A stretch of 64,000 nt of DNA from Negaprion brevirostris (Eukaryota), in contig JARDVH010000059.1 in the NCBI GenBank assembly GCA_030324005.1, positions 38,031,182-38,095,181 of the forward strand. Direction: 5' to 3'. How positions within the stretch are numbered: the stretch's first letter is position 1; the number at the start of each line of letters is the position of its first letter. Shown here one piece after another: positions 13,067-63,445 of the stretch. The position numbers were made by a program, and so were the translations under genes. The notes beneath the pieces were generated by a model. It worked only from the letters and a program-made list of their open reading frames with translations. It was not told where the DNA came from and did no database searches.

Positions 13067-13195
13067 ATGAGAAGATCTGCAGCTCCGAGCCAGCTCAGCG
13101 GCAACGCAGCAAAAAAATTCAGGTTTATCCCACCGGGGAAAACTGATCAGCGGCAGCCTGTTTCCGGAAACGCCAGACCCCTGGAGAGAAACCAG
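13067..13195 (+). CDS. RAD54B: RAD54B first coding exon (43 codons, phase-0 donor CAG|GTACAA)
   Basis: MRRSAAPSQLSGNAAKKFRFIPPG matches the recalled vertebrate RAD54B N-terminus (MRRSAAPSQLQGNSFKKPKFIPPG); exon length is close to the human equivalent. Confidence 0.92.
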
Positions 13196-14340: not shown

Positions 14341-16822
14341 NNNNNNNNNNNNNNNNNNNNNNNNNNNNNNNNNNNNNNNNNNNNNNNNNNNNNNNNNNNN
14401 NNNNNNNNNNNNNNNNNNNNNNNNNNNNNNNNNNNNNNNNGAAGGGACAGGCTGTCCCAAAAGCTTGCGGCTTTTGCTACAAATAAACCTGTTTGGACTT
14501 TAAACTGGTGTTGTGGGGTTTCTTCCTTGGGAATACCACAGTCAACCATCCTTCTGTCTGAAAACAGAACTATTTACATGAAGTTACTATTTTCTGCCTT
14601 TGAGTCAATCCTTCTTATCCATATTGATCCTCCCAGTCCTTGAACCACAATGTTATGGATGAAATTATCCATTTTGTGGCATGGATTTGCTCATGAATAA
14701 ACAGATGTTCCGGAGGGTGGCGTTGAGTGTTGGTAGCAGCAGTGAGTTGGGTAAGTGGGATGCAAAGAATGTTGGTGGGATTAGCTCCCAGCAGGCACAC
14801 TATGTGTGGGAGGGATTGGAGTTGCTCATCAGAAAGACGCAACAACTGGTTTATCAACAAGCCATTCAGAAAATGCAAGAGAGGCAGAGGGTTAATTTAG
14901 GTTTCTGTAAAGACAAAATAAAAATAATGGGTGGAAGTCTGGAAAAACAGCCAAAATGCACACATGACGAGATATGGGAAGTTTATAATATAACATTTTT
15001 AACGTGTGCGGCAGAAAAATCTTGAAACGTTTCGCAATTAGTGAATTGCTTTTAAAATACAGAGGCTGTTAGTGTTCAGACAAAACCATGGTCATTTTAC
15101 ACACTGACCTCTAAACAGTGGGGTAAAATGATTAAGCTTGTGTTTTTTTTTCCCCTTTAGGATGATATTAGCCAGAAAACAGACTTTCTTCAGTACCATG
15201 TGATTTTTATGTTAACCTCTGTTTGCTAACATTTTCTCCAAAGGTCAGCACCTTTTCAACAATGCAGCATTCCCTCTATACTGCATTAGACAGGCAATTT
15301 AAATCAAATTTGCTCTTCTGGTTTAAGATTCAAACCATAACCTTCTGATTCAAAAGTGAATTTACTTCAGTTTGGTTTATTTGGTAGTACATAAAAATAG
15401 GAGATCCGTTTATAATACTTAAAACAGTAGCATCATTCATGGCTGTTTTGATATCTGGAATTTGGATTTTGTTGTGAATGTTTTTCATGAGTGCCTTACT
15501 TTTTTTAAAACAATATAATTGTGTACATATTATACTGTGATGCATTTTAAATATTTGTAAAATCCAGTTTTGCTGCTTTCCTCCCAAAAATTATTCTTAA
15601 GCATGTTTTTGAAGCTCAGTCAGTATTGTAACATTTCTGCTCATTCACTATTTACATGTCATGGTCTATAATTATTACCAGGATGCAATTATCATGGATT
15701 GTATCTATTGAGATGTCAGCAGATGGCAATATCGTGACGTCTCTAACTCTGAATTCAGTATTCTGACTGGTACCCTTTATAGATTGGGCTTTGAAATTAA
15801 TCTTTCACAATCTGCTCCCAGTATTGGTGAAATTTTACATAATAATCGGATATGTTATTAAACAATTGCCTATCTTGCAGATTCATAAAATATACTAGGG
15901 TATTTGAATTAAAATCATGGACTTTCTTGATAGAGGGGGTCTGACTATTTTCATAAGCTGTTGTGTGGGTTTCATGATTTCAGGCTTTCGAGCTGTTTTT
16001 GTTGCCAAAAGATCTGTCTTTCAACTTGTGTTGCAATTTATTTTTTTAACATGGCTTTGACAAATTCTTAAAAAGTTGCTGTTGATTTGGTGGAAGCTGA
16101 TTACAACAGACTATTTAAACTTATTGAACGGCGTACAACCAAGCATGATAGAGGAAGTGAAGTTCCTTGATTGACATCAGAACTAGCATGGGGAATGCAA
16201 ACAACACTAAAAGCTCCGCAGCAGGATTACTGGGGCCCTGTCAGGGATCAGTATACAGACTGTGGAATACTTGTGCCCTCGTGCACACTGTTTTTTAACA
16301 TCAACAATAATTCTTTGTTCATGGTTTGATATAAATTTTCCTATTTCAAACATAAAAGTCAAGACTAAGTTTTTGTCTTTGAGATTAAAGGTGCAGTTTT
16401 TAGCAGCTGCACTATCTGGCATAAAGATCAGGCTGTGATATGTAGGTTAGTGTGTAACACAGCAAAATGATAGCTTTAGAACACCTGCACCTTTGCACTG
16501 TGATTCTCGTGCTAATGCTTTCAAAACCAGAAAAACAGATCAGATAACAAAACAGTCCAGCATTTGATTGGTCTCAGCATCAGGGGGCTTGCACAGTCTC
16601 ATTTTAGTCTGGAGCCTTAAGTAGGTCAGGCCTAGCTTAGCCAGCCTGCAGATGATCAGCTGCAGATGATCTCTGGATGAAGTCAAGCTGAAAGGAATTT
16701 CAGTGAACCCCTCCTGATAGGCGTAGGCCTAAAAAAGGCTGGCCTAGTTAAGCTTCAGCTTATAGTGTGAGGGAAGGCTTTACAGTCAGTCTGAAGTTTG
16801 TATGATGTGCTCTGCACAAAAT

Positions 16823-17205
16823 ATGCTAGGTAAAAAATCAAATCGATCCTCGAATTTTACCATTTATGAAAAGATTGATCTGTTAAAACTTGTGCGGCCT
16901 CACATCAAGGTCTTGGAGGTTCATAAGAATAATCAAGCCATAATTGTTGAAAAGAATCGTTGCTGGGAAACTATAGCACAGCAGTACAATGCTGTTGGAG
17001 TGGATCGCCCTCCTCGTGGTGCACAGGCTTTGCGAACACTATACAAACGCATTAAAGAAAGTGCCAAACAGGAGATAGCCAGAAGAGAACAACTGCATCC
17101 AGACTATAAAGGAAATGTCTCTGAGCCAACCAGAAGAATTCTAGAAATGATTCCTCACATTTTCCAACCACTTTTGAAGGTGATAGACCCTGACAACTTG
17201 CAAAG
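16823..17205 (+). CDS. FSBP: FSBP coding exon 1, Myb/SANT-like DNA-binding domain; in-frame upstream ATG at 16802; phase-2 donor AG|GTAAGG
   Basis: RSSNFTIYEKIDLLKLVRPH..IVEKNRCWE..YNAVGVDRPPR.AQ.LRTLYKRIKE..SEPTRRILEMIP closely matches recalled human FSBP; nested in RAD54B as in human. Confidence 0.93.
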
Positions 17206-18849
17206 GTAAGGCTATCACATTTTACTGATCATAATAAAATAGTTTTTAAAAATGCTCTTTATCTGAGGTTAGTGTTCAGAGCTCATTATCATTACAGCCA
17301 CTTCATCTATGTTTCTGTATATGAGCACATATGGCTGGAGTTTTGGGCAGGTGGCCAACACAAAAAAATTATTTACATTCTAATTTTGGACGTTGACTTC
17401 AGTTAGTCACATTAGTCTCTAACTGGGGGCAAGTTCTGTGCTCTTCATTGTGAATAATTGGCCACGCTGAACTTTGGGTAACATAGCAGTTCAAAAATCA
17501 GTCAACTGCTAACACTGAGCACTTCCTGAATTGGAGTAAAATAAGATAGCCATTAATTGATCTTCGCACCAAGTGTGGTAAGATGTGGAACTCATTATTA
17601 GGAATTTGGAAGTTAATGGGGTTAACCGTGAAGTTGAGATGAAAACAAAAGTAACAGATAACATGATTAGCAGGCGTGCAGAGGAATATTGAGAGTCAGT
17701 TTTCCCAGTAACAAGATTAGCAGGCATCTAGAGAAATTGAGGTACGAATTGCCGTATCATAGACTCACTGATTTTTGGTCAACAATGTTTCTATAAAACA
17801 ATAACTCCTAACAGCAAGGAATTTGGGAGATTGATAGCTGAATCCACAGGATGGGATATCAAAGCGGCTAAACAGTATGTCTACTGGCATCCTCAGTGGG
17901 AGGCAGGCTAGTTTTTCATCAACAGCCAGACAGGCTAAAATCTTCAGAGAGCCAGTTCCATCTCTGATCGGAGCCATTGAGGCCTGCTCCATCTAACATT
18001 TAGAGCCACGGCAAATTATAGATACTGTTGTCTAAAAGATGCAGTTTCGTACTTTTGCTGAACCAGCAAAAGGCATTTTCCAAGACTTAGTCATCTAAGC
18101 TGTATTGTGTGGTAGCTATAAACTAGATTTGACTTATTGTATTGTGGATGTTGTTTGGGAAAAGTGATGACTTAGTATGTTCAATGAATGTGGGTATATT
18201 TTGAGAATAAGAGGTAATTTCAGATTAAACAGTGTGTTTAAAACTTAAGTGTATTAATGACTGTAATGTAATCTTTCATGTTGTGCATTTTTCTTTTCTT
18301 CTACTTTAATAATTACTCTTTATTAATTGTTTACACAATGACTGGAGTGGTTCCTCCACTGGGTTGTACATTGTTCCACACCATTCAAAACAAATATACT
18401 CCACTAAGAATTCGTGTTGCAGGGTTTTTAGACATTCTCGCAAGTAACATCAGAGCAGTTGTTACTACCACATGGAACGGTTGACGCAGATAGCACAGAT
18501 GTATTTGAAGAAAGGCATGATATATAGTGGGAATAGAATTTAAAGAATAATTCAAGTGGGAAAGTCTGTGGAATATAAATGCTAGTGTAATGAACTTTTC
18601 ATGCATTGATCTTTCCGATATTTAAATGGAAAAATTATGGCAACGCACACTGTGAGACGTCACTAAAGCTGGTAATGAGGAAGAGCTGGGAGGTATCATT
18701 TACAAATGGAACTTAATATACTTATTCCACTGTATAGATGCAAAAGGTCTTTAGTTTAGAAAGGCATCTTGTGTCAATGCAGGTTTAGTGGACCAAAGGA
18801 CCTGTTCCTGTGTCGTACCGTTCTTTGTACTTCAGGAGATGTTACTGAG

Positions 18850-24191: not shown

Positions 24192-24771
24192 GCCTTGTGG
24201 AAGTTCACCTTCTGAACAAGAACAAGATTCCTGCGTGGAACAGCCTGCTAGCTTGTACCCACAGCCTGGAACCTCAGGCTACCAGTCCCATTCCAGTCAT
24301 GATTGGGTAACGCCAGAGTCAGAACCCGAACATGAAGAGAAACCTCCTCCGATATTAACTGTGCTATCACAGCCGAGCGAAAACTTGCAAGAACAGAATA
24401 AAACAGAGACCCAACAGGCCACTAATGGCTCTGTCTCACCCTTTTCATCTTCTGGGGCAAGAGTATCCTTAACACCATCTCCGAGGCCTGCAAGAAGGGA
24501 AGATGTTTTGTTCAGCCACCACCAGCACCACAGCGGTGCCCTGCACCATGTTGGCAGTCATGATAATGGAGAAATGAAATTAATGTCAGCAGAGGAACAT
24601 GAGATAATTATGGAAAATCAAAGAAAGTTTGGACTCTATCTTGACGAAAAAAGAGAGAGCCTGAAACGAAAGCAAGCTTTAGAGGAAGACTTGTTAAGGG
24701 CAAAAATCAGAGTAGAAGAATTAAAGGCAGCAAGACTGCAACAAGGCTTGCCAGCAACCCAGGAAGCCTAA
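24192..24771 (+). CDS. FSBP: FSBP terminal coding exon (Pro/Ser-rich linker plus coiled coil); spliced CDS from 16823 is 320 aa
   Basis: Acceptor CTTTCCTTCAG|G in phase 2, compatible with the 17205 donor (AG|G = Arg); EEHEIIMENQRKFGLYLDEKRESLKRKQALEEDLLRAKIRVEELKAARL matches the recalled FSBP C-terminus. Confidence 0.92.
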
Positions 24772-27604: not shown

Positions 27605-29217
27605 TAATTTGATTTGATTTTGTTATTGTCGCATGTATTAGTATACAGAGAAAGTTGATAAAGAAGGGTAGGAGAAACTACGAAGCTGGGCTAGCGCTTA
27701 ATATAAAAAAGGATAGCAAGAGTTTTTANNNNNNNNNNNNNNNNNNNNNNNNNNNNNNNNNNNNNNNNNNNNNNNNNNNNNNNNNNNNNNNNNNNNNNNN
27801 NNNNNNNNNNNNNNNNNNNNNNNNNNNNGAATGGCGGGGCAGGCTCGAAGGGCTAGATGGCCTACTCCTGCTCCTATTTCTTATGTTCTTATGTTCTTCT
27901 GTATCTATTGTTTTTTGAATGCTATACTGTTCATAGAGAATGAAAGGATAGAGTGCAGAGTATAGTATTACAGTCTTCTCTAGGGTGTAGAGAAAAATCA
28001 ACTTGATATGAGGTAACTCCATTCAAACGTTTGATGGCAGCATCAAAGAAAGGTTTTGAGTTGGTTGGTATTTTGTATCTTATTCCTGATGGAAAAAGGC
28101 GGAAGAAAGTACGTCCGGGTGTGTGAGGTCCTTGGTTACGCTGGCTCCTTCTCTGAGGCAGCGGGTAGTGTAGGCAGAGCCAATGGATGGGAGGCTGGTT
28201 TGTGTGTTGGACTGGGCTTCATTCATGACCCTTTATAGTTTCTTGCGGTCTTGGGCAGAGCAAGAGCCATATCAAGCTGTGAAACAACCAGAAGTAATTC
28301 TTTCTAGATGCATCTGTAAAAGTTAGTGAGAGTCGTAGCGGACATGCCACGTTTCCTTAACCTCCTGAGAAAGTAGCAGCGTTGGTGGGCTTTTTTAACT
28401 ATACCATCGGTGTGAAGGGATCAGGACAAATTGTTGGTGACCTGCAGACCTAGAAACTTGAACCTTTCCACCATTTCAATTTTGTGCCTGTTCATGTAGA
28501 CAGGGGCATGTCCTGCACTACGCTTCCTGAAGTCGCTGAGTATCTCCTTCATTTTGTTGAAATTGAAGGGGAGATTATTGTCGTTGCACCAATTCACCAG
28601 ATTCTCCACCTGTTTTTGCTGTGCTCTATCTCATCATTGTTCAAGATCTGACCCCCTATGGTGGTGTCATCAGCAAACTTGAAAATTGAGTTGGAGGGAA
28701 ATTTGGCCATACAATTGTAGGTGTATGAGGAGTCTAGTAAGGAACCGACGACACAGCCTTGTCGGGCACCGGCGTTGAGGATGATCGTGGAGGAGGTGTT
28801 GGTGCCTATCCTTACTACTTACGGTCTGTGGGTTAGGAAGTCTAAGTGCAGTCGCAGAGAAGGGAATCAAACCCAGGCCACGGAGTTTGGAGATGAGTTT
28901 TGTTGGAATAATGGTGTTTGAAGGCTGAGCTGTAGTCAATAAATGGAAGTGTGACGACGGTGTTCTTGTTATCCAGATGTCCCCAGGTTGAGTCCAGAGC
29001 CAGGGAGATGGTGTCTGCTGTGGATCTGTTGTGGCAGTAGGTGAAGTATAGTGGATCCAGGCAATCTGGGAGGCTGGAATGATTCAAGCGCTTCATAATG
29101 ATGGATGTCAGAGCCACCAGACAATAATCATTAAGGCACGCTGCCAGGCTTTTCTTTGGCATAGGGATGATGGTCATCTTCTTGAATCAGAGAGGGATAT
29201 TAGATTGGTGGAAAGAG
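27605..29217 (-). mobile_element. Rex1/Babar-type LINE (RT to 3' end) with a young CR1 inserted at about 27655-27895
   Basis: IIPMPKK..CLNDY..VALTSIIMK..LDPL.F.Y..NRSTAD.ISLAL..HLDNKNT..FIDYSSAF; TIIPTKLISKL; WCNDNNL..N.NK.KE..DFRK; (TTTGA)n tail near 27608. Confidence 0.85.
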
Positions 29218-29919: not shown

Positions 29920-31410
29920 CTGGTAAATCAGTTTTTAGACTCTTTCAGAATTGTCTTGTCTGGAGCCACAAGAAAGGGTTTGACAAATTTTGTTCAAATT
30001 TTTGGAGGATGTTAGAAATAGGACTGATAAAGGGGGTCAGTGGATGTAGTTTACTTGGATTTACAGAAGGCATTTGATAACATTCCCTATGGGAGTTTGG
30101 TTCATAAATGCTGGCATGGATTAAGGATTGTTTAGCAGGCATAATGCAAATAGTAGGAAGTAACAGGTCATTCTCGCACTGGCAGGCTGTGATCGGTATT
30201 GTACGTCAACTTGGGCCCCAGCTGTTTACAATATTTATCAATGATTTGGATGTGGGGACTAAATGTAATATTTCCAAATTTGTGGATGACACAAATCTAA
30301 GTGGGAATGTGAGTTGTGAGGAAGATTTGGGCAGACTTGGGCAAGAAAATGCAAATGAATGTAATGTGGAAAACTGGGAGATTATCCACTTTGGGAAGCA
30401 CAGAGATGCAGATTATTTTTTAAATGATGACAGATTAGAAAGTGTACATGTACAAAGCAATCTGGGTATCCTCATCATTACGTCAGTGAAAGCTAATGTG
30501 CAGATGCAGCAGGCAGTTAGGAAGACTCATGGCGTGTTAGCCTTTAGTGCAAGAGGATTTGAGCGCAGAAGGAGCGAAATCCTGCTTCAGTTGTAATGAA
30601 CCTTGGTTAGACTGCACTTGGAATGGTGTAGAGTTTTGATCCTCTCACTTTAGGCAGGATATTATTGTTATAGAGGGAGTGCAACAAAGATTCATTCGAC
30701 TTATTTCCACCATGGCGGGCCTGTCCTATGAAGAAAGATTAGGGCAACTGGCCTGTGTTTTCTAGAATTTTGAAGAATGAGTGGTGATCTGAGTGGAACC
30801 TACAAAGTATTCCAGAGATAGACAGGGTAGATGGAGGTAAGATGTTTCCTCTAGTTGGGGAGTTTAGAACGAGAGAACACAATTTGAAAATAAGGAGGTC
30901 ACTTAGGGCTGAGAAGGGAGAAACTCCTTTTACTTAATTTACTTAAATTAAGGGGTGGTAATTATAGGACGGATGTCAGAGGTATGCTCTTTATTCAGAG
31001 GGCAGTGAGGGTGTGGAATGCCCTGCCTGCAGCAGTTGTGGACTTGCCAACTTTAAGGGCATTCAAATGGTCAGTGGGTAGGCATATGGATAACATTGGA
31101 ATAGTTTAGGTTAGAGGGTCATTAGGTTGGTACCACTGGTCAGCGCAACATCGAGGCCGAAGGGCCTGTACTGCGCTGTAATGTTCTATGTACTTAGAAG
31201 GTTGTGAATCTGAGGAATTCTCTATCCCAAAGGACTGTGGAAGCTCTGTCATTGGTATTTAGAAATTTGTCAATCTCTGCTTTAAACATACCCCATAAAG
31301 GGCTATGTGGACAGTTTGGGTAAAAAGCACTGGAGTGATGATCAGCCATGACCATAATTAATGGCAGAGCATGCTCGATGGGCTGAATGGCCTATTGTCC
31401 TCTGTTTCTA
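29920..31410 (+). mobile_element. CR1 LINE (RT to 3' end) with a nested CR1 tail at about 30950-31190
   Basis: LAWIKDCL..LGPQLFTIFINDLDVGTKCNISKFVDDTNL..IIHFG..YFLN. Confidence 0.85.
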
Positions 31411-42600: not shown

Positions 42601-43222
42601 CAGAGGTCAGTGCCATTTGTATAGAAAACACGTGATCGCAGGGTTTGATGTGCAAGAGAGAAGTGACAAAACTCTTTAAAATTGATCTTGTTTTGCAACA
42701 TGTTTGGTAGTAGCCAAGAGTTAACAATGAGTTTTAAAAGTAGGAAAGGGATACTGCAGTTTAAGTGTATAGATTATTTCAGCATATAAACTTTCAAAAT
42801 TTGTTCTGTAGCTACACACATTTCAGAGCAGCTAAGTTTATAGGAAATAAGTTTATACTTAGTTGCAGATGTTTAGAATAATGGCCATTGACAGCTTGCC
42901 ATTATACACTTAACAGCTTCAATGGATTAGCTGGGCGTTTCTTACACAGTCATTGAGGGATTAGTCTGACCTTCCTTGACCCCTGGTTTAGCATTATGCA
43001 AGACTCAGGGTTTTATACTACACAATAGAGACATTCAGCACCTCATTACTCTGAATATTCAAGCTGAATGGGCCCTTTTGCACATCATTACCTAAGAAAG
43101 CAGGTTTTGGGTGTGTTTCTGAAGTGGGGGCTGGCCTTTGGAGGTAGTCTGATTTAAAAGAGCAAGTCAGGGCTCTAGATTATTCAGTGTAAAGTTTAGT
43201 TGCTGAACAGTTCAGTTACACC

Positions 43223-43911
43223 ATGGAATCCACAAGAAAAAAACAGAAGGAACTTACCTTATCTGAGAAGATTCAAGTTCTCGAATTGCTTCAGAGGCAA
43301 AAGATCTCCCAGATGGAACTGGCAAAGCGTTTTGGTGTTACACAGCCTGTCATCTCCAGGCTAATCAAGAACAAGGAAAAAGTCTTGATGGAGTGGCACA
43401 ATAACAGCAATCCAGATCGTAAACGTAAAAGGGAAGGAAGGGATAGTGATGTGGATACAGCCCTCTTACAGTGGTTCCAGATTGCCAGAGCACAACATGT
43501 ACTTGTCTCAGATGAAGTCTTGGCTGCAAAGGCCAAAGGCCTGGCGGATGCTATGCAGATCAGGAATTTTGTTCCAACTGTTGGCTGGATCAACAGGTGG
43601 AAGGCTCGGCACGGTGCCTTTTTGCAACAAGTACATGGGGAAACTGATGGCAGAGGTCAGTCATTGGGCAGTACATCACAAGAGGTTGTGCCACCAGAAG
43701 GAATGACTGAAGAGGAATTTCATCAGTATGTGGAGCAAGCTGCTATTAAGGTATGTGTTTGGGACATGACTGATCAGGAACCAGGAAACACCATAAAAGC
43801 AATTACAAAGTCAGAAGCTATTGACGTTGAGGAAGAGAAAATGATGCCGGCCTTTAAGATGGCAAGAGGAAGTAACGGCCAACTAACACCTTCATCGAAC
43901 CAGTATAACAT
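43223..43911 (+). CDS. Exon 1 of a predicted chimeric gene: pogo/Tigger (CENP-B/TIGD-type) HTH_psq-like plus Tc5-type HTH domains, no DDE domain
   Basis: Intact 230-codon ORF with strong Kozak ACCATGG; LTLSEKIQVLELL..SQMELAKRFGVTQPVISRLIKNKEK, RKRKR, VDTALLQWF..R, LAAKAKGLA, F.PTVGWINRWKARHG; donor AT|GTAAGT (phase 2). Confidence 0.85.
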
Positions 43912-45250
43912 GTAAGTTTACCACTTTTCAATTTTTATTGACTACTTTTTAAATAATTTACTAGAAATTTAAGGAAAAGGTTATTCTGACTCTGCTAAAT
44001 TCTAGTTTTTTTTGTTCTCCTTGGTTAAACAGTTCACCATCTCTCTTCTGTACTGCTGATATTTATGTTTAAAGATGCTGTGTAGCAGCTTGGCTCAATT
44101 GGTTGCTGTAAGAACATTGTAGATTCAAGGACTATTTTAGATTTGAACATCTTAACCTGAATTGACACTCAATGCAGTACCCTCACTGTATTGCATGGTT
44201 GAAGATGCCATCTTCTGAACAAGCCAGTACATCAAGGCGTGTGTGTCTTCTCAAATAGATATTAGAGATCTAATGGCATTATTGTAAGAGTCTGGAAACT
44301 CTCCGCGGGGGGGGGGGGGGGGGGGGCGGGNNNNNNNNNNNNNNNNNNNNNNNNNNNNNNNNNNNNNNNNNNNNNNNNNNNNNNNNNNNNNNNNNNNNNN
44401 NNNNNNNNNNNNNNNNNNNNNNNNNNNNNNNNNNNNNNNNNNNNNNNNNNNNNNNNNNNNNNNNNNNNNNNNNNNNNNNNNNNNNNNNNNNNNNNNNNNN
44501 NNNNNNNNNNNNNNNNNNNNNNNNNNNNNNNNNNNNNNNNNNNNNNNNNNNNNNNNNNNNNNNNNNNNNNNNNNNNNNNNNNNNNNNNNNNNNNNNNNNN
44601 NNNNNNNNNNNNNNNNNNNNNNNNNNNNNNNNNNNNNNNNNNNNNNNNNNNNNNNNNNNNNNNNNNNNNNNNNNNNNNNNNNNNNNNNNNNNNNNNNNNN
44701 NNNNNNNNNNNNNNNNNNNNNNNNNNNNNNNNNNNNNNNNNNNNNNNNNNNNNNNNNNNNNNNNNNNNNNNNNNNNNNNNNNNNNNNNNNNNNNNNNNNN
44801 NNNNNNNNTGCCTGGAGTACTGGTCCCCAGTGTGCTGCCAGATACAGACATCCTGCCTCCTAAACTGGCCCTCCTCTGCCTCTGAGGACTTGAAGGTTGA
44901 CTGGAAAATTCCTGTCTGCCTGCTGCATGCAGATGAGTACTCCTGCTGGACCTTTATCCCTACTCTGCAAAAATGGCCCAGAGGTGGGATGTAATTGGGG
45001 AACTGGCCAGTGGGGCTATTTTTAACTCCAGCCTTCCTCCGATTCCTCTGAGCCTTCCTCAGCTCTGGCAGAAGGTGAAAATCCAATCCCAATAGTTGAA
45101 CCCTGAATTGTTCTTTCTCTTGGTTCAAGGGCACTAATGCCAGTTATAATATCACATGCATAAGAAATGCTACAAGCATGAGTTAAATTGACTAATTCTG
45201 ATAAGAAGAATGTTGGCCAAGCTACTAGGTGAACTCCATTACATCAAGTA

Positions 45251-45402
45251 CATTAACAAGCCTCACAACACCAGATTAAACAGGTTTATTTGGTAGCACA
45301 AGCTTTTGGAGCACTGCCCCTTCATTAGGTGAATACCAAATAAACTTGGACTTTAACCTGATGTTGTAAGAGTACTGCGCCTACCCCAGTCCATATCATG
45401 GC
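45251..45402. mobile_element. Palindromic Penelope-type short insertion with 12-bp target-site duplication
   Basis: CTCACAACACCAGATTAAA..TTTAACCTGATGTTGTAAG; TTACATCAAGTA at 45239-45250 and 45403-45414. Confidence 0.7.
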
Positions 45403-46878
45403 TTACATCAAGTAGTGCAACACCCAAGGAAACAAGGCCTCAGTACCCCACTTAAAGGATGGCACTGAACAACAATGGATTACAACATTTACAACTCTCT
45501 CGTTGCTGCATTGGACTGTTAGCAAGTGTCGTGCACTTAAGTCAGGAAGACAAATGAACACAATCGTCTACATCAGAGACAAGAGTGTGTTCTGTACTTT
45601 CCTGTTCTAAAATTTGGCCTCAATTATTTCTCATTCCCATCTCTCCTGAAGATGTAATAGTGTTGCTCAGGACTCTTTCCATGGGTGTCAGTCACCCTTG
45701 GTTATGTTTCCCAAGTGAGCCTTAACTGCAAATATTTGTTGGCTTCTTGACCACTGTTACAATCTCCATAGAAACAGATAACTTTTAAAGAGAAGTTTGA
45801 ACTTCCAGTTGATTTGAAGTCAAGGTTTCACAATTTAAAAAATACTTTTTACCAAATGCTTTTGTAAACAATTCATTCTTCAAATTCCAGAAAAGAGATT
45901 CCCCATTTTTAACTTTTAGCATAACTAACGATCTCATTCTATGGCTATGCAGTATCCCCAGACTGGTCTAAAATTATTCTCAGCTCTTGATGACTGGGTT
46001 GCTTCCTTTTTACTTTCCCAAACAAGTAATTTCCAATCACAGAACTGACTTTAACTGTGAAGGTTGCGCTGGAGATTCTTTCATNNNNNNNNNNAAATCC
46101 TTACAAATTCAATCTCTTCAATCTGAAGCACATGTTTCCACCTGCATTCAGCATGGTGAACCTTAGAGTCAGCATTTTTTCTGTATCATGTGCAGGACTC
46201 ACTGCTGACATGTGATATTCATGGATTTGTTGAGAAGCCTGTAGCCTGATCTCAAAAATGGCTTCCTCTGTCCTCTTCCCCATTGGTAACATGAAACATA
46301 ACTTTGTATGTAGATAGAAATGCTAATTAGCTATCTTTTAATCAACTTTTTTTCATCTTACAAATAAATGAATGGTTAGTTTACAGCACAACTGCTTACA
46401 TCCAATATCTTTTGGGACTTTGGGAGATTCAGAGTCTACTCATGCTACACTCCGACTACTGCCATTGTCTCTAAGCAGAAATATCTTGTACCACCTCCTC
46501 AGTAAAACCATCCTAGCTATACTTTATAAACTTCAGAATGGTAACACCACAAAGTCGAATCCAATTTGCTCATGCATAGACTTGCACTTCTAACAGAGGT
46601 CATCATTTGATGATCAGGAGTGTGAGTCCCTGTGCTTATTTTCCCTCCAGTCATTGAAGTTAGTTGTAGACCTTAGCTAAATGAATTCAGCCAAAATTGG
46701 GGAATTGAACCTCCCTGTACTGTATGACTCCGTTAATTGCTGCTAAAATGTTATTGTCATCAGGAAAACCATTTTGTCCACCAATAATCAAAAACATATG
46801 TATTTTTGGAACACAATTTATTTGCAATAAATTATTGAGAAATTGTGGAACTAATATATTTATTCAACTTTTATACAG

Positions 46879-47434
46879 ACCACATGGAAGAAATTCTGCT
46901 TCAAGAAAGGATATTTGCATGGAAATGCCTAGCAGTTCTTATTCACAGCCTGGAACTTCAGGCTACCAGTCCTATTCATTCCCCAGGTGGGTAAGCCCAG
47001 AGGTAGGACGAAAGCGAAGTGAAGGAAAGTCTCTGTTAACTGCTCAGCCACAGCTGAGGAACAGCTTTGAGGGACTGGACAAGGCAGAGACTCATCTTCT
47101 TACAGATGTGTCTTTTTCTCCACCTTGTGCTAGATTACCCTCCACATCATCCCCTAGACCTCTTACAAGGGATGACCTTTTATTTCTGCAGCAGCACCAG
47201 GCAAGCATCCCACGCTATGGGACCAGGAATGAGAATGACATGCCAGCAACATCCTCAGAGGAACAAGAGCTTATCCTGGAAAACCAAAGAAAATTTGGAT
47301 TGTATCTTGATGAGAAAAGGGAAAGCCTTAAAAGATTACATGCGCTGGAGGAAGAACTGCTCAGGGCAAAAATCGAAGTTGAACAGTTAAAAGCATTACG
47401 ACTACGAGAATTGTCAGTGCTTAAGGACCCCTAA
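46879..47434 (+). CDS. Exon 2 of the predicted chimeric gene: duplicated FSBP-like terminal exon; spliced product 414 aa
   Basis: Acceptor CTTTTATACAG|A in phase 2 at the position homologous to the FSBP acceptor; shares QPGTSGYQS, SPRP..R.D.LF and ENQRKFGLYLDEKRESLKR..ALEE.LLRAKI.VE.LKA.RL with 24192-24771; no stops or frameshifts. Confidence 0.87.
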
Positions 47435-63175: not shown

Positions 63176-63445
63176 GTGCCTTTTCTCTGCAGCAGCTGCA
63201 GCCATCCCGACAATTTGTAGCACCAAAACAAATTCACAAGCCACTGCCGCTAGTATCTCGGCAGCAGATAAGTCCAGAACATCACAAAGACCAAAACGTA
63301 GCCGATTCTATCACTAAGTACTACAACGTCTTGTGGTGTAAAGCATCAAAGAAGAAACACAAGAAATGGGAGGGGGATGCAATCTTGATTGTCAGAAAGA
63401 CATCTGTGATTCTCAAGGATGTAGAGGGCAAAGATATTGGAAAAG
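63176..63445 (+). CDS. RAD54B: RAD54B internal coding exon (N-terminal region); alternative acceptor gives a start at 63193
   Basis: DSITKYYNVLWCKASKKKHKKWEGDAILIVRKTSVILKDVEGKDIGKG matches recalled RAD54B (DSLVKYFSVVWCKPSKKKHKKWEGDAVLIVKGKSFILKNLEGKDIGRG); acceptor CTTCCTTGCAG|G, donor AAG|GTAAGC phase 1. Confidence 0.9.

Follow-up and report, generated by a model that had tools for sequence, protein, structure and literature searches.

A pogo transposase head on a copied FSBP exon: a probable swap of DNA-binding domains in a gene of sharks and rays

A two-exon fusion gene next to FSBP inside RAD54B

FSBP, the fibrinogen silencer-binding protein, is the vertebrate homolog of Drosophila Apontic. 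We examined a 64,000-nt stretch of the Negaprion brevirostris genome (hereafter the window) in which FSBP and a second gene are both nested in RAD54B, between its exons at 13067-13195 and 63176-63445 (Table 1). Joined in frame, the two exons of the second gene (43223-43911 and 46879-47434) give 414 codons; the first carries two helix-turn-helix domains of pogo transposase type and the second is a duplicate of the last exon of FSBP. We refer to this gene as the fusion gene and to the last exons of FSBP and of the fusion gene as tails A and B. The donors of FSBP exon 1 and fusion exon 1 and the acceptors of both tail exons are all in phase 2. Pfam located the Myb/SANT domain (PF13873) in 16766-17206 and not in 43193-43912, and found no domain in either tail exon. 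Comparison of the two genes, as DNA and in translation, revealed no similarity beyond the last exons and common repeats, nor any vestige of a second Myb exon. The window also holds putative decayed retroelement pieces (a reverse-transcriptase-like frame at 192-602, LINE sequence at 30108-30593 and 28845-29186), and many short, apparently SINE-like repeats fill the introns.

Table 1. Features of the nested locus (positions in the window)
Feature	Positions	Strand	Support
RAD54B (host gene), first coding exon; bounds the nested genes upstream	13067..13195	+	70% to sawfish RAD54B
FSBP (parent) exon 1, Myb/SANT (PF13873), phase-2 donor AG|GTAAGG	16805..17205	+	domain E 8e-19
FSBP (parent) exon 2 (last exon), holding the other core, 24613-24669	24192..24771	+	sequence comparison
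Fusion exon 1, ATG to phase-2 donor AT|GTAAGT; pogo/TIGD3-like head, DDE region deleted	43223..43911	+	domains; RNA-guessed contigs leaving the genome here
CENP-B_N helix-turn-helix (PF04218)	43235..43390	+	E 1.1e-8, above cut-off
HTH_Tnp_Tc5 helix-turn-helix (PF03221)	43445..43615	+	E 5e-12, above cut-off
Post-DDE segment of pogo transposase, matching P0064 residues 379-445	43679..43867	+	tblastn E 2e-5; second search E 3e-7
Fusion intron, 2967 nt, GT...AG	43912..46878	+	X2 and X6 contigs
Fusion exon 2, copy of FSBP's last exon, from the phase-2 acceptor up to the stop	46879..47434	+	sequence comparison
Long C-terminal helix, 40/51 identical to FSBP	47258..47410	+	model helix 356-411, pLDDT mostly 77-92
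19-codon silent-only core	47279..47335	+	translation comparison
RAD54B later exon; bounds the nested genes downstream	63176..63445	+	60% to sawfish RAD54B

The splice joint was seen in contigs from sequencing runs of relatives whose RNA label was guessed, which bear on the joint itself and not on strand, start or level. The 43911-46879 joint was present in six of the seven RNA-guessed runs examined (four coded organisms, six studies): X2 and X6 contigs omit exactly 2967 nt, and those of X1, X4, X10 and X16 leave the genome at 43910 and continue in the letters of exon 2. The remaining run, X5, covers part of exon 1 without the joint. The DNA-type run X19, possibly the window's own source, reads through the fusion donor unspliced and matches exon 1 and its flanks without a difference. 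Contigs start without loose ends at 42753, 43187, 43197, 43203, 43230 and 43232, and neither an upstream exon nor a link to the first exon of RAD54B was seen at their 5′ ends.

Other transcript forms were noted as well. One X1 contig (depth 5.5) uses a second donor inside exon 1, AAG|GTATGT at 43750/43751; joined to 46879, it shifts the frame and meets a stop after 17 codons, so that the product would be head-only and 193 aa long. The isoforms annotated for Heterodontus, S. torazame and Hemitrygon likewise depend on different splice sites, near 46985. In addition, the 470 nt preceding the ATG (42753-43222) look highly conserved by subtraction, since X4, which bears the organism code of X2, differs at 38 places within the coding part and X2 at 47 over the whole of 42753-43907; this region might be a conserved promoter or 5′-UTR.

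Conservation of the gene and comparison of its tail with that of FSBP

Protein cluster look-ups retrieved orthologs, mostly named "uncharacterized", from six sharks (Chiloscyllium plagiosum, Chiloscyllium punctatum, Stegostoma, Scyliorhinus canicula, Scyliorhinus torazame and Heterodontus) and four rays (Amblyraja, Leucoraja, Narcine and Hemitrygon). In C. plagiosum, Stegostoma, S. canicula, Amblyraja and Leucoraja, the accession of the fusion protein adjoins that of FSBP, on a record of equal length. When longer proteins were searched with just the tail, six matches came back, four of them 377-414-aa proteins with PF04218 and PF03221, and a sawfish RAD54B model (P0024) carries an FSBP tail, the head and a second tail in the order of the window. 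This public model (1614 aa) merges RAD54B, the FSBP tail and the entire fusion gene, wrongly or unusually; in one ray at least, the fusion gene has thrown off the annotation of RAD54B. In ten further elasmobranchs (Heptranchias, Pristiophorus, Carcharodon, Cetorhinus, Mustelus, Rhincodon, Rhinoraja, Hypanus and two Mobula) FSBP was found and the fusion was not retrieved by word-based, insensitive searches over patchy annotation of nested genes; annotation gaps or lineage losses are both possible.

Across the orthologs, identical residues amount to 54-57 of 57 in CENP-B_N (nine full-length orthologs) and 47-58 of 58 in HTH_Tnp_Tc5 (all 11 records, of which the Heterodontus one begins late and the sawfish one is embedded in P0024). 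The post-DDE motif keeps 25-26 of 27 residues and the tail helix 48-51 of 51, while the linkers drift. At the nucleotide level, among the differences in 40 of 62 listed rows, silent and non-silent changes in the head numbered 19:1 for X10 and 20:0 for X4, and the rest of exon 1 had 6 silent to 11 non-silent. Head and tail are alike under purifying selection, the tail also by the dN/dS given below. The fusion is a real, old and strongly conserved elasmobranch gene, so far retrieved just from sharks and rays.

The initial annotation had singled out a core of 19 residues, identical between 24613-24669 and 47279-47335, in which nine codons differ by silent changes only. Re-translation recovered exactly those nine codons, which hold 10 nucleotide differences. 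With changes placed at random over sites, an all-silent core has P ~1e-7, for a stretch chosen post hoc; an identical run of at least 19 residues within a 51-residue helix of 40/51 identity arose in ~8% of simulations. Silent changes among same-residue codons of this exon pair occur in 9 of 19 inside the core and 29 of 72 outside it. Thus, the silent rate of the core is ordinary for these exons and the 19-codon run is nothing special beyond the conserved helix: the inference of a live copy drawn from it stands, its specialness does not. The robust signal of selection is exon-wide. Between the two tail copies, dN/dS (Nei-Gojobori) was 0.38 over the whole exon (bootstrap 0.23-0.58), 0.14 in the C-terminal helix (0.06-0.34) and 0.55 in the linker (0.32-0.88), all below 1, in agreement with the purifying selection proposed from the core.

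A genome search with the tail returned exactly two places, the exons at 24192-24771 and 46879-47434 (all five candidates scored). Since these copies share just 66% of their DNA over 524 nt, they are not haplotigs, and a pseudo-exon does not fit the intact orthologs in 10 named elasmobranchs and the spliced contigs; on both points the initial annotation was right. In a tree of 32 tails, from which Hemitrygon, sawfish, partial and near-duplicate records were left out, fusion tails formed one clade (support 100/100) with sharks and rays inside, elasmobranch FSBP tails another (87/90) and bony-vertebrate FSBP a third (99/98). Each tail copy therefore has its own clade across species, and tree and orthologs agree with the old duplication previously suggested. 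Because the fusion-tail clade holds both sharks and rays, the duplication predates their split, which lies ~270-300 million years back. The fusion helix is identical to that of bony-vertebrate FSBP at 35-37 of 51 residues, compared with 40 of 51 for FSBP of the same genome, and at individual helix sites the three groupings that are possible are favoured 2, 4 and 3 times. Elasmobranch tails group together (99/98) under midpoint rooting only, the tree holding no outgroup, holocephalan or jawless-fish sequence; shared linker motifs and this rooting suggest that the duplication followed the split from bony fishes. The gene is thus live, as the initial annotation held, yet not the plain FSBP paralog it had in mind, since just the last exon is derived from FSBP and the first comes from a pogo transposase.

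Origin of the head and predicted role of the protein

Among the best 150 matches listed, from 1.84 billion representatives searched, a single cluster matched the protein over its whole length. The closest head belonged to P0064, a 489-aa "TIGD3-like" sawshark protein (54% identity over 147 residues), whose residues 379-445 also match the segment directly after the fusion head. Its residues 149-378, the DDE region, have no counterpart in the fusion, and we found no DDE remnant in the window. Because the head and the post-DDE segment of P0064 both match, exon 1 is a pogo transposase with approximately residues 149-378 deleted in frame. Head trees placed the fusion with P0064 (SH-aLRT 93 with 63 rows; 92/91 with 27 rows); a clade of the fusion with lungfish and mammalian TIGD3 was not rejected (AU p 0.127), the best tree pairing the fusion with P0064.

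The counterpart of P0064 in this genome (L009/L011, G000:C157:33192639-33194044) is ~70% identical and carries many stops and frameshifts, and the fusion has outlived the full-length TIGD3-like gene here. Broken in this genome and intact in the sawshark, L009/L011 represents a lineage-specific gene loss. Read from the motifs of the catalytic triad, the third position is N in both P0064 and its broken counterpart, which hints that the donor of the head may already have been a domesticated gene rather than a mobile element. We looked for terminal inverted repeats in the ~3 kb that flank exon 1 to either side and found none above chance (best inverted match E 1.8); the fusion locus thus shows neither the terminal inverted repeats nor the catalytic domain of an active pogo transposon.

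Two other pogo-related loci deserve mention. L002 (G000:C163:60529579-60530500) is another intact gene, whose head is of CENP-B type and in which no DDE domain is obvious; its 375-aa open frame is 77% identical to a sawshark protein, near a whale shark model and sister to a coelacanth TIGD4-like protein; perhaps it represents another DDE-less pogo domestication in sharks. L007 (G000:C59:36324815-36328216), on the contig of the window and ~1.7 Mb away, is a JRK-like pogo copy spread across two frames, and resembles a whale shark jerky-like protein named in the PMC7386202 supplements.

The predicted model of the fusion protein (mean pLDDT 54) is made up of two bundles of helices and a short helix (163-180), followed by a linker that is long and disordered and then by a helix of 56 residues (356-411). 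Its top fold match was 1hlv (E 1.1e-4), and a profile of nine orthologs searched against solved structures hit just CENP-B(1-129), bound to DNA (E 4.5e-9). An Atlas search gave one unnamed match at 0.76 for the tail and, for the whole protein, only CENP-B-type leads below 0.9. The C-terminal helix is likely to form a coiled coil, with a modest heptad register (hydrophobic a/d positions at best 9/16 in the fusion and 6/17 in FSBP). Folded together, the helices of fusion and FSBP reached an ipSAE of 0.42 compared with 0.00 for the best of three controls (contact agreement at least 87%, partner pLDDT at least 76), in runs made without alignments and with controls not stated to be coiled coils; the score is rated weak. 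Of the reference pairs, 51 of the 78 solved and 2 of the 108 mismatched ones pass the mark set for this score, and values at or below 0.60 account for 5 of the 78 solved pairs and all 4 passing mismatches. The complex score nudges towards a heterodimer of the two proteins through their helices, and does not establish it.

Probable swap of DNA-binding domains, its alternatives and known systems

We consider it probable that the gene is a host-transposase fusion that swapped the DNA-binding domain of FSBP, and likely a transcription factor aimed at other DNA sites. Its exon structure, the splice joint in relatives, its domains, the loss of DDE, its orthologs and the purifying selection on it are established by the above results. 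With the intact FSBP parent next door, the event would amount to a swap of DNA-binding domains. In such a scenario, the last exon of FSBP would have been duplicated in tandem before the shark-ray split; an upstream TIGD3-like pogo copy would have been shortened in frame by ~230 catalytic residues and have brought a phase-2 donor fitting the phase-2 acceptor of the duplicated exon; and selection would then have kept both helix-turn-helix domains and the C-terminal helix. The likeliest product would be a transcription factor combining a new DNA address with the effector or pairing end of FSBP. A more speculative extension, which we regard as possible though doubtful, is that the fusion would heterodimerise with FSBP and either redirect this Apontic/FSBP factor, which regulates hedgehog and cyclin E, to sites of CENP-B type or titrate it, an elasmobranch-specific rewiring by a transposon DNA-binding domain swap that would also have outlived the gene that donated the head.

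Alternatively, the catalytically empty head could serve genome defence by binding the ends of parent pogo elements and silencing or blocking them, instead of acting on host genes. Transposase heads without DDE can bind element ends, as KRAB-transposase fusions repress cognate TIRs (10.1101/2020.05.07.082677), and decayed pogo relics are numerous in this genome (77 matches). However, the locus most like a parent is a single broken copy with N at the third catalytic position, which looks long dead, and the head has hardly changed between sharks and rays, unlike what an arms race would produce. We thus regard defence as unlikely, bearing in mind that it and host-gene regulation are not mutually exclusive. 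Less probable still is that 46879-47434 serves as an alternative last exon of FSBP (17205 spliced to 46879), the pogo exon being secondary. Such a splice would stay in frame, given that the two donors and the two acceptors all lie in phase 2; yet among 259 proteins tail B came with a pogo head in 17 and tail A with a Myb head in 41, no crossed combination occurred, and each joint seen at 46879 comes from 43911, although a minor isoform of this type is conceivable. Finally, an assembly artefact, a pseudo-exon or similarity kept by gene conversion, conceivable in a window with 3081 N from a fragmented assembly, has a negligible probability: it is refuted by the orthologs and splice joints, the tail copies being too diverged in DNA, X19 matching without a difference, silent sites of the core being near saturation (pS 0.79, no sign of recent conversion), each copy keeping its own clade, and substitutions in one copy not being mirrored in the other in Scyliorhinus, Narcine and Leucoraja.

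The fusion gene is predicted in databases and apparently undescribed. No description was found in the literature, also by locus identifiers (0 matches), bioRxiv supplements and subscription journals lying outside the scope of the search. Term searches in passages of PMC9392472, PMC7394757, PMC10027918 and PMC11788884 did not return it; PMC9392472, considered for a Harbinger origin of FSBP, gave no match to FSBP. The supplements of PMC7386202 gave no match to "fibrinogen", Amblyraja, Chiloscyllium or Scyliorhinus, and the first few of their 13 mentions of Rhincodon and Callorhinchus concern Tigger, JRK and POGZ.

When compared with known systems, the fusion resembles FSBP in its last exon (~50% identical), phase-2 acceptor, C-terminal helix and position inside RAD54B. 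Unlike FSBP, it has CENP-B_N together with HTH_Tnp_Tc5 in place of Myb/SANT, from which a different DNA specificity would be expected; with no Myb domain, it is not a member of the FSBP family. With TIGD3 and P0064, pogoR-derived domesticated genes, it shares the CENP-B_N/HTH_Tnp_Tc5 head (53-57% identical) and the post-DDE motif, and differs in that its DDE region is deleted and it ends in a host exon. The origin of TIGD3 is placed in lobe-finned fish (PMC7386202), a range beyond which the full-length shark TIGD3-like proteins P0064 and P0209 widen the group. As in domesticated pogo genes, the fusion is a single fixed locus kept by selection across species. DDE is kept in all the domesticated pogo genes studied by Gao et al. 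(PMC7386202); the fusion has the head and has lost DDE_1, and is thus not a standard domesticated pogo gene. Like CENP-B, it has a two-HTH head and a C-terminal part gained after domestication, in CENP-B a dimerisation domain (PMC7386202), although its head is just 26% identical, it has no DDE region and another tail, and we saw no evidence of a centromere role.

The closest parallel is provided by host-transposase fusions such as KRABINER, KTIGD1/3, POGK, POGZ and SETMAR, in which the DNA-binding domain of a transposase is joined by splicing to a regulatory part from the host and retained under selection (10.1101/2020.05.07.082677). The fusion gene likewise has an in-frame spliced joint, seen in the RNA-guessed contigs of relatives, and orthologs under selection in multiple species. 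That survey covered tetrapods, with no match to "shark" or "fsbp", and the present case extends transposase capture to cartilaginous fishes. Unlike in the surveyed fusions, the transposase part is here the first exon and the host part the duplicated last exon of a transcription factor. This layout is unusual: the transposase head comes first, its catalytic region is deleted and the host tail is copied from a neighbouring transcription factor. Parent and fusion, with a common effector end and different DNA-binding domains, constitute a natural experiment on the retargeting of a regulator.
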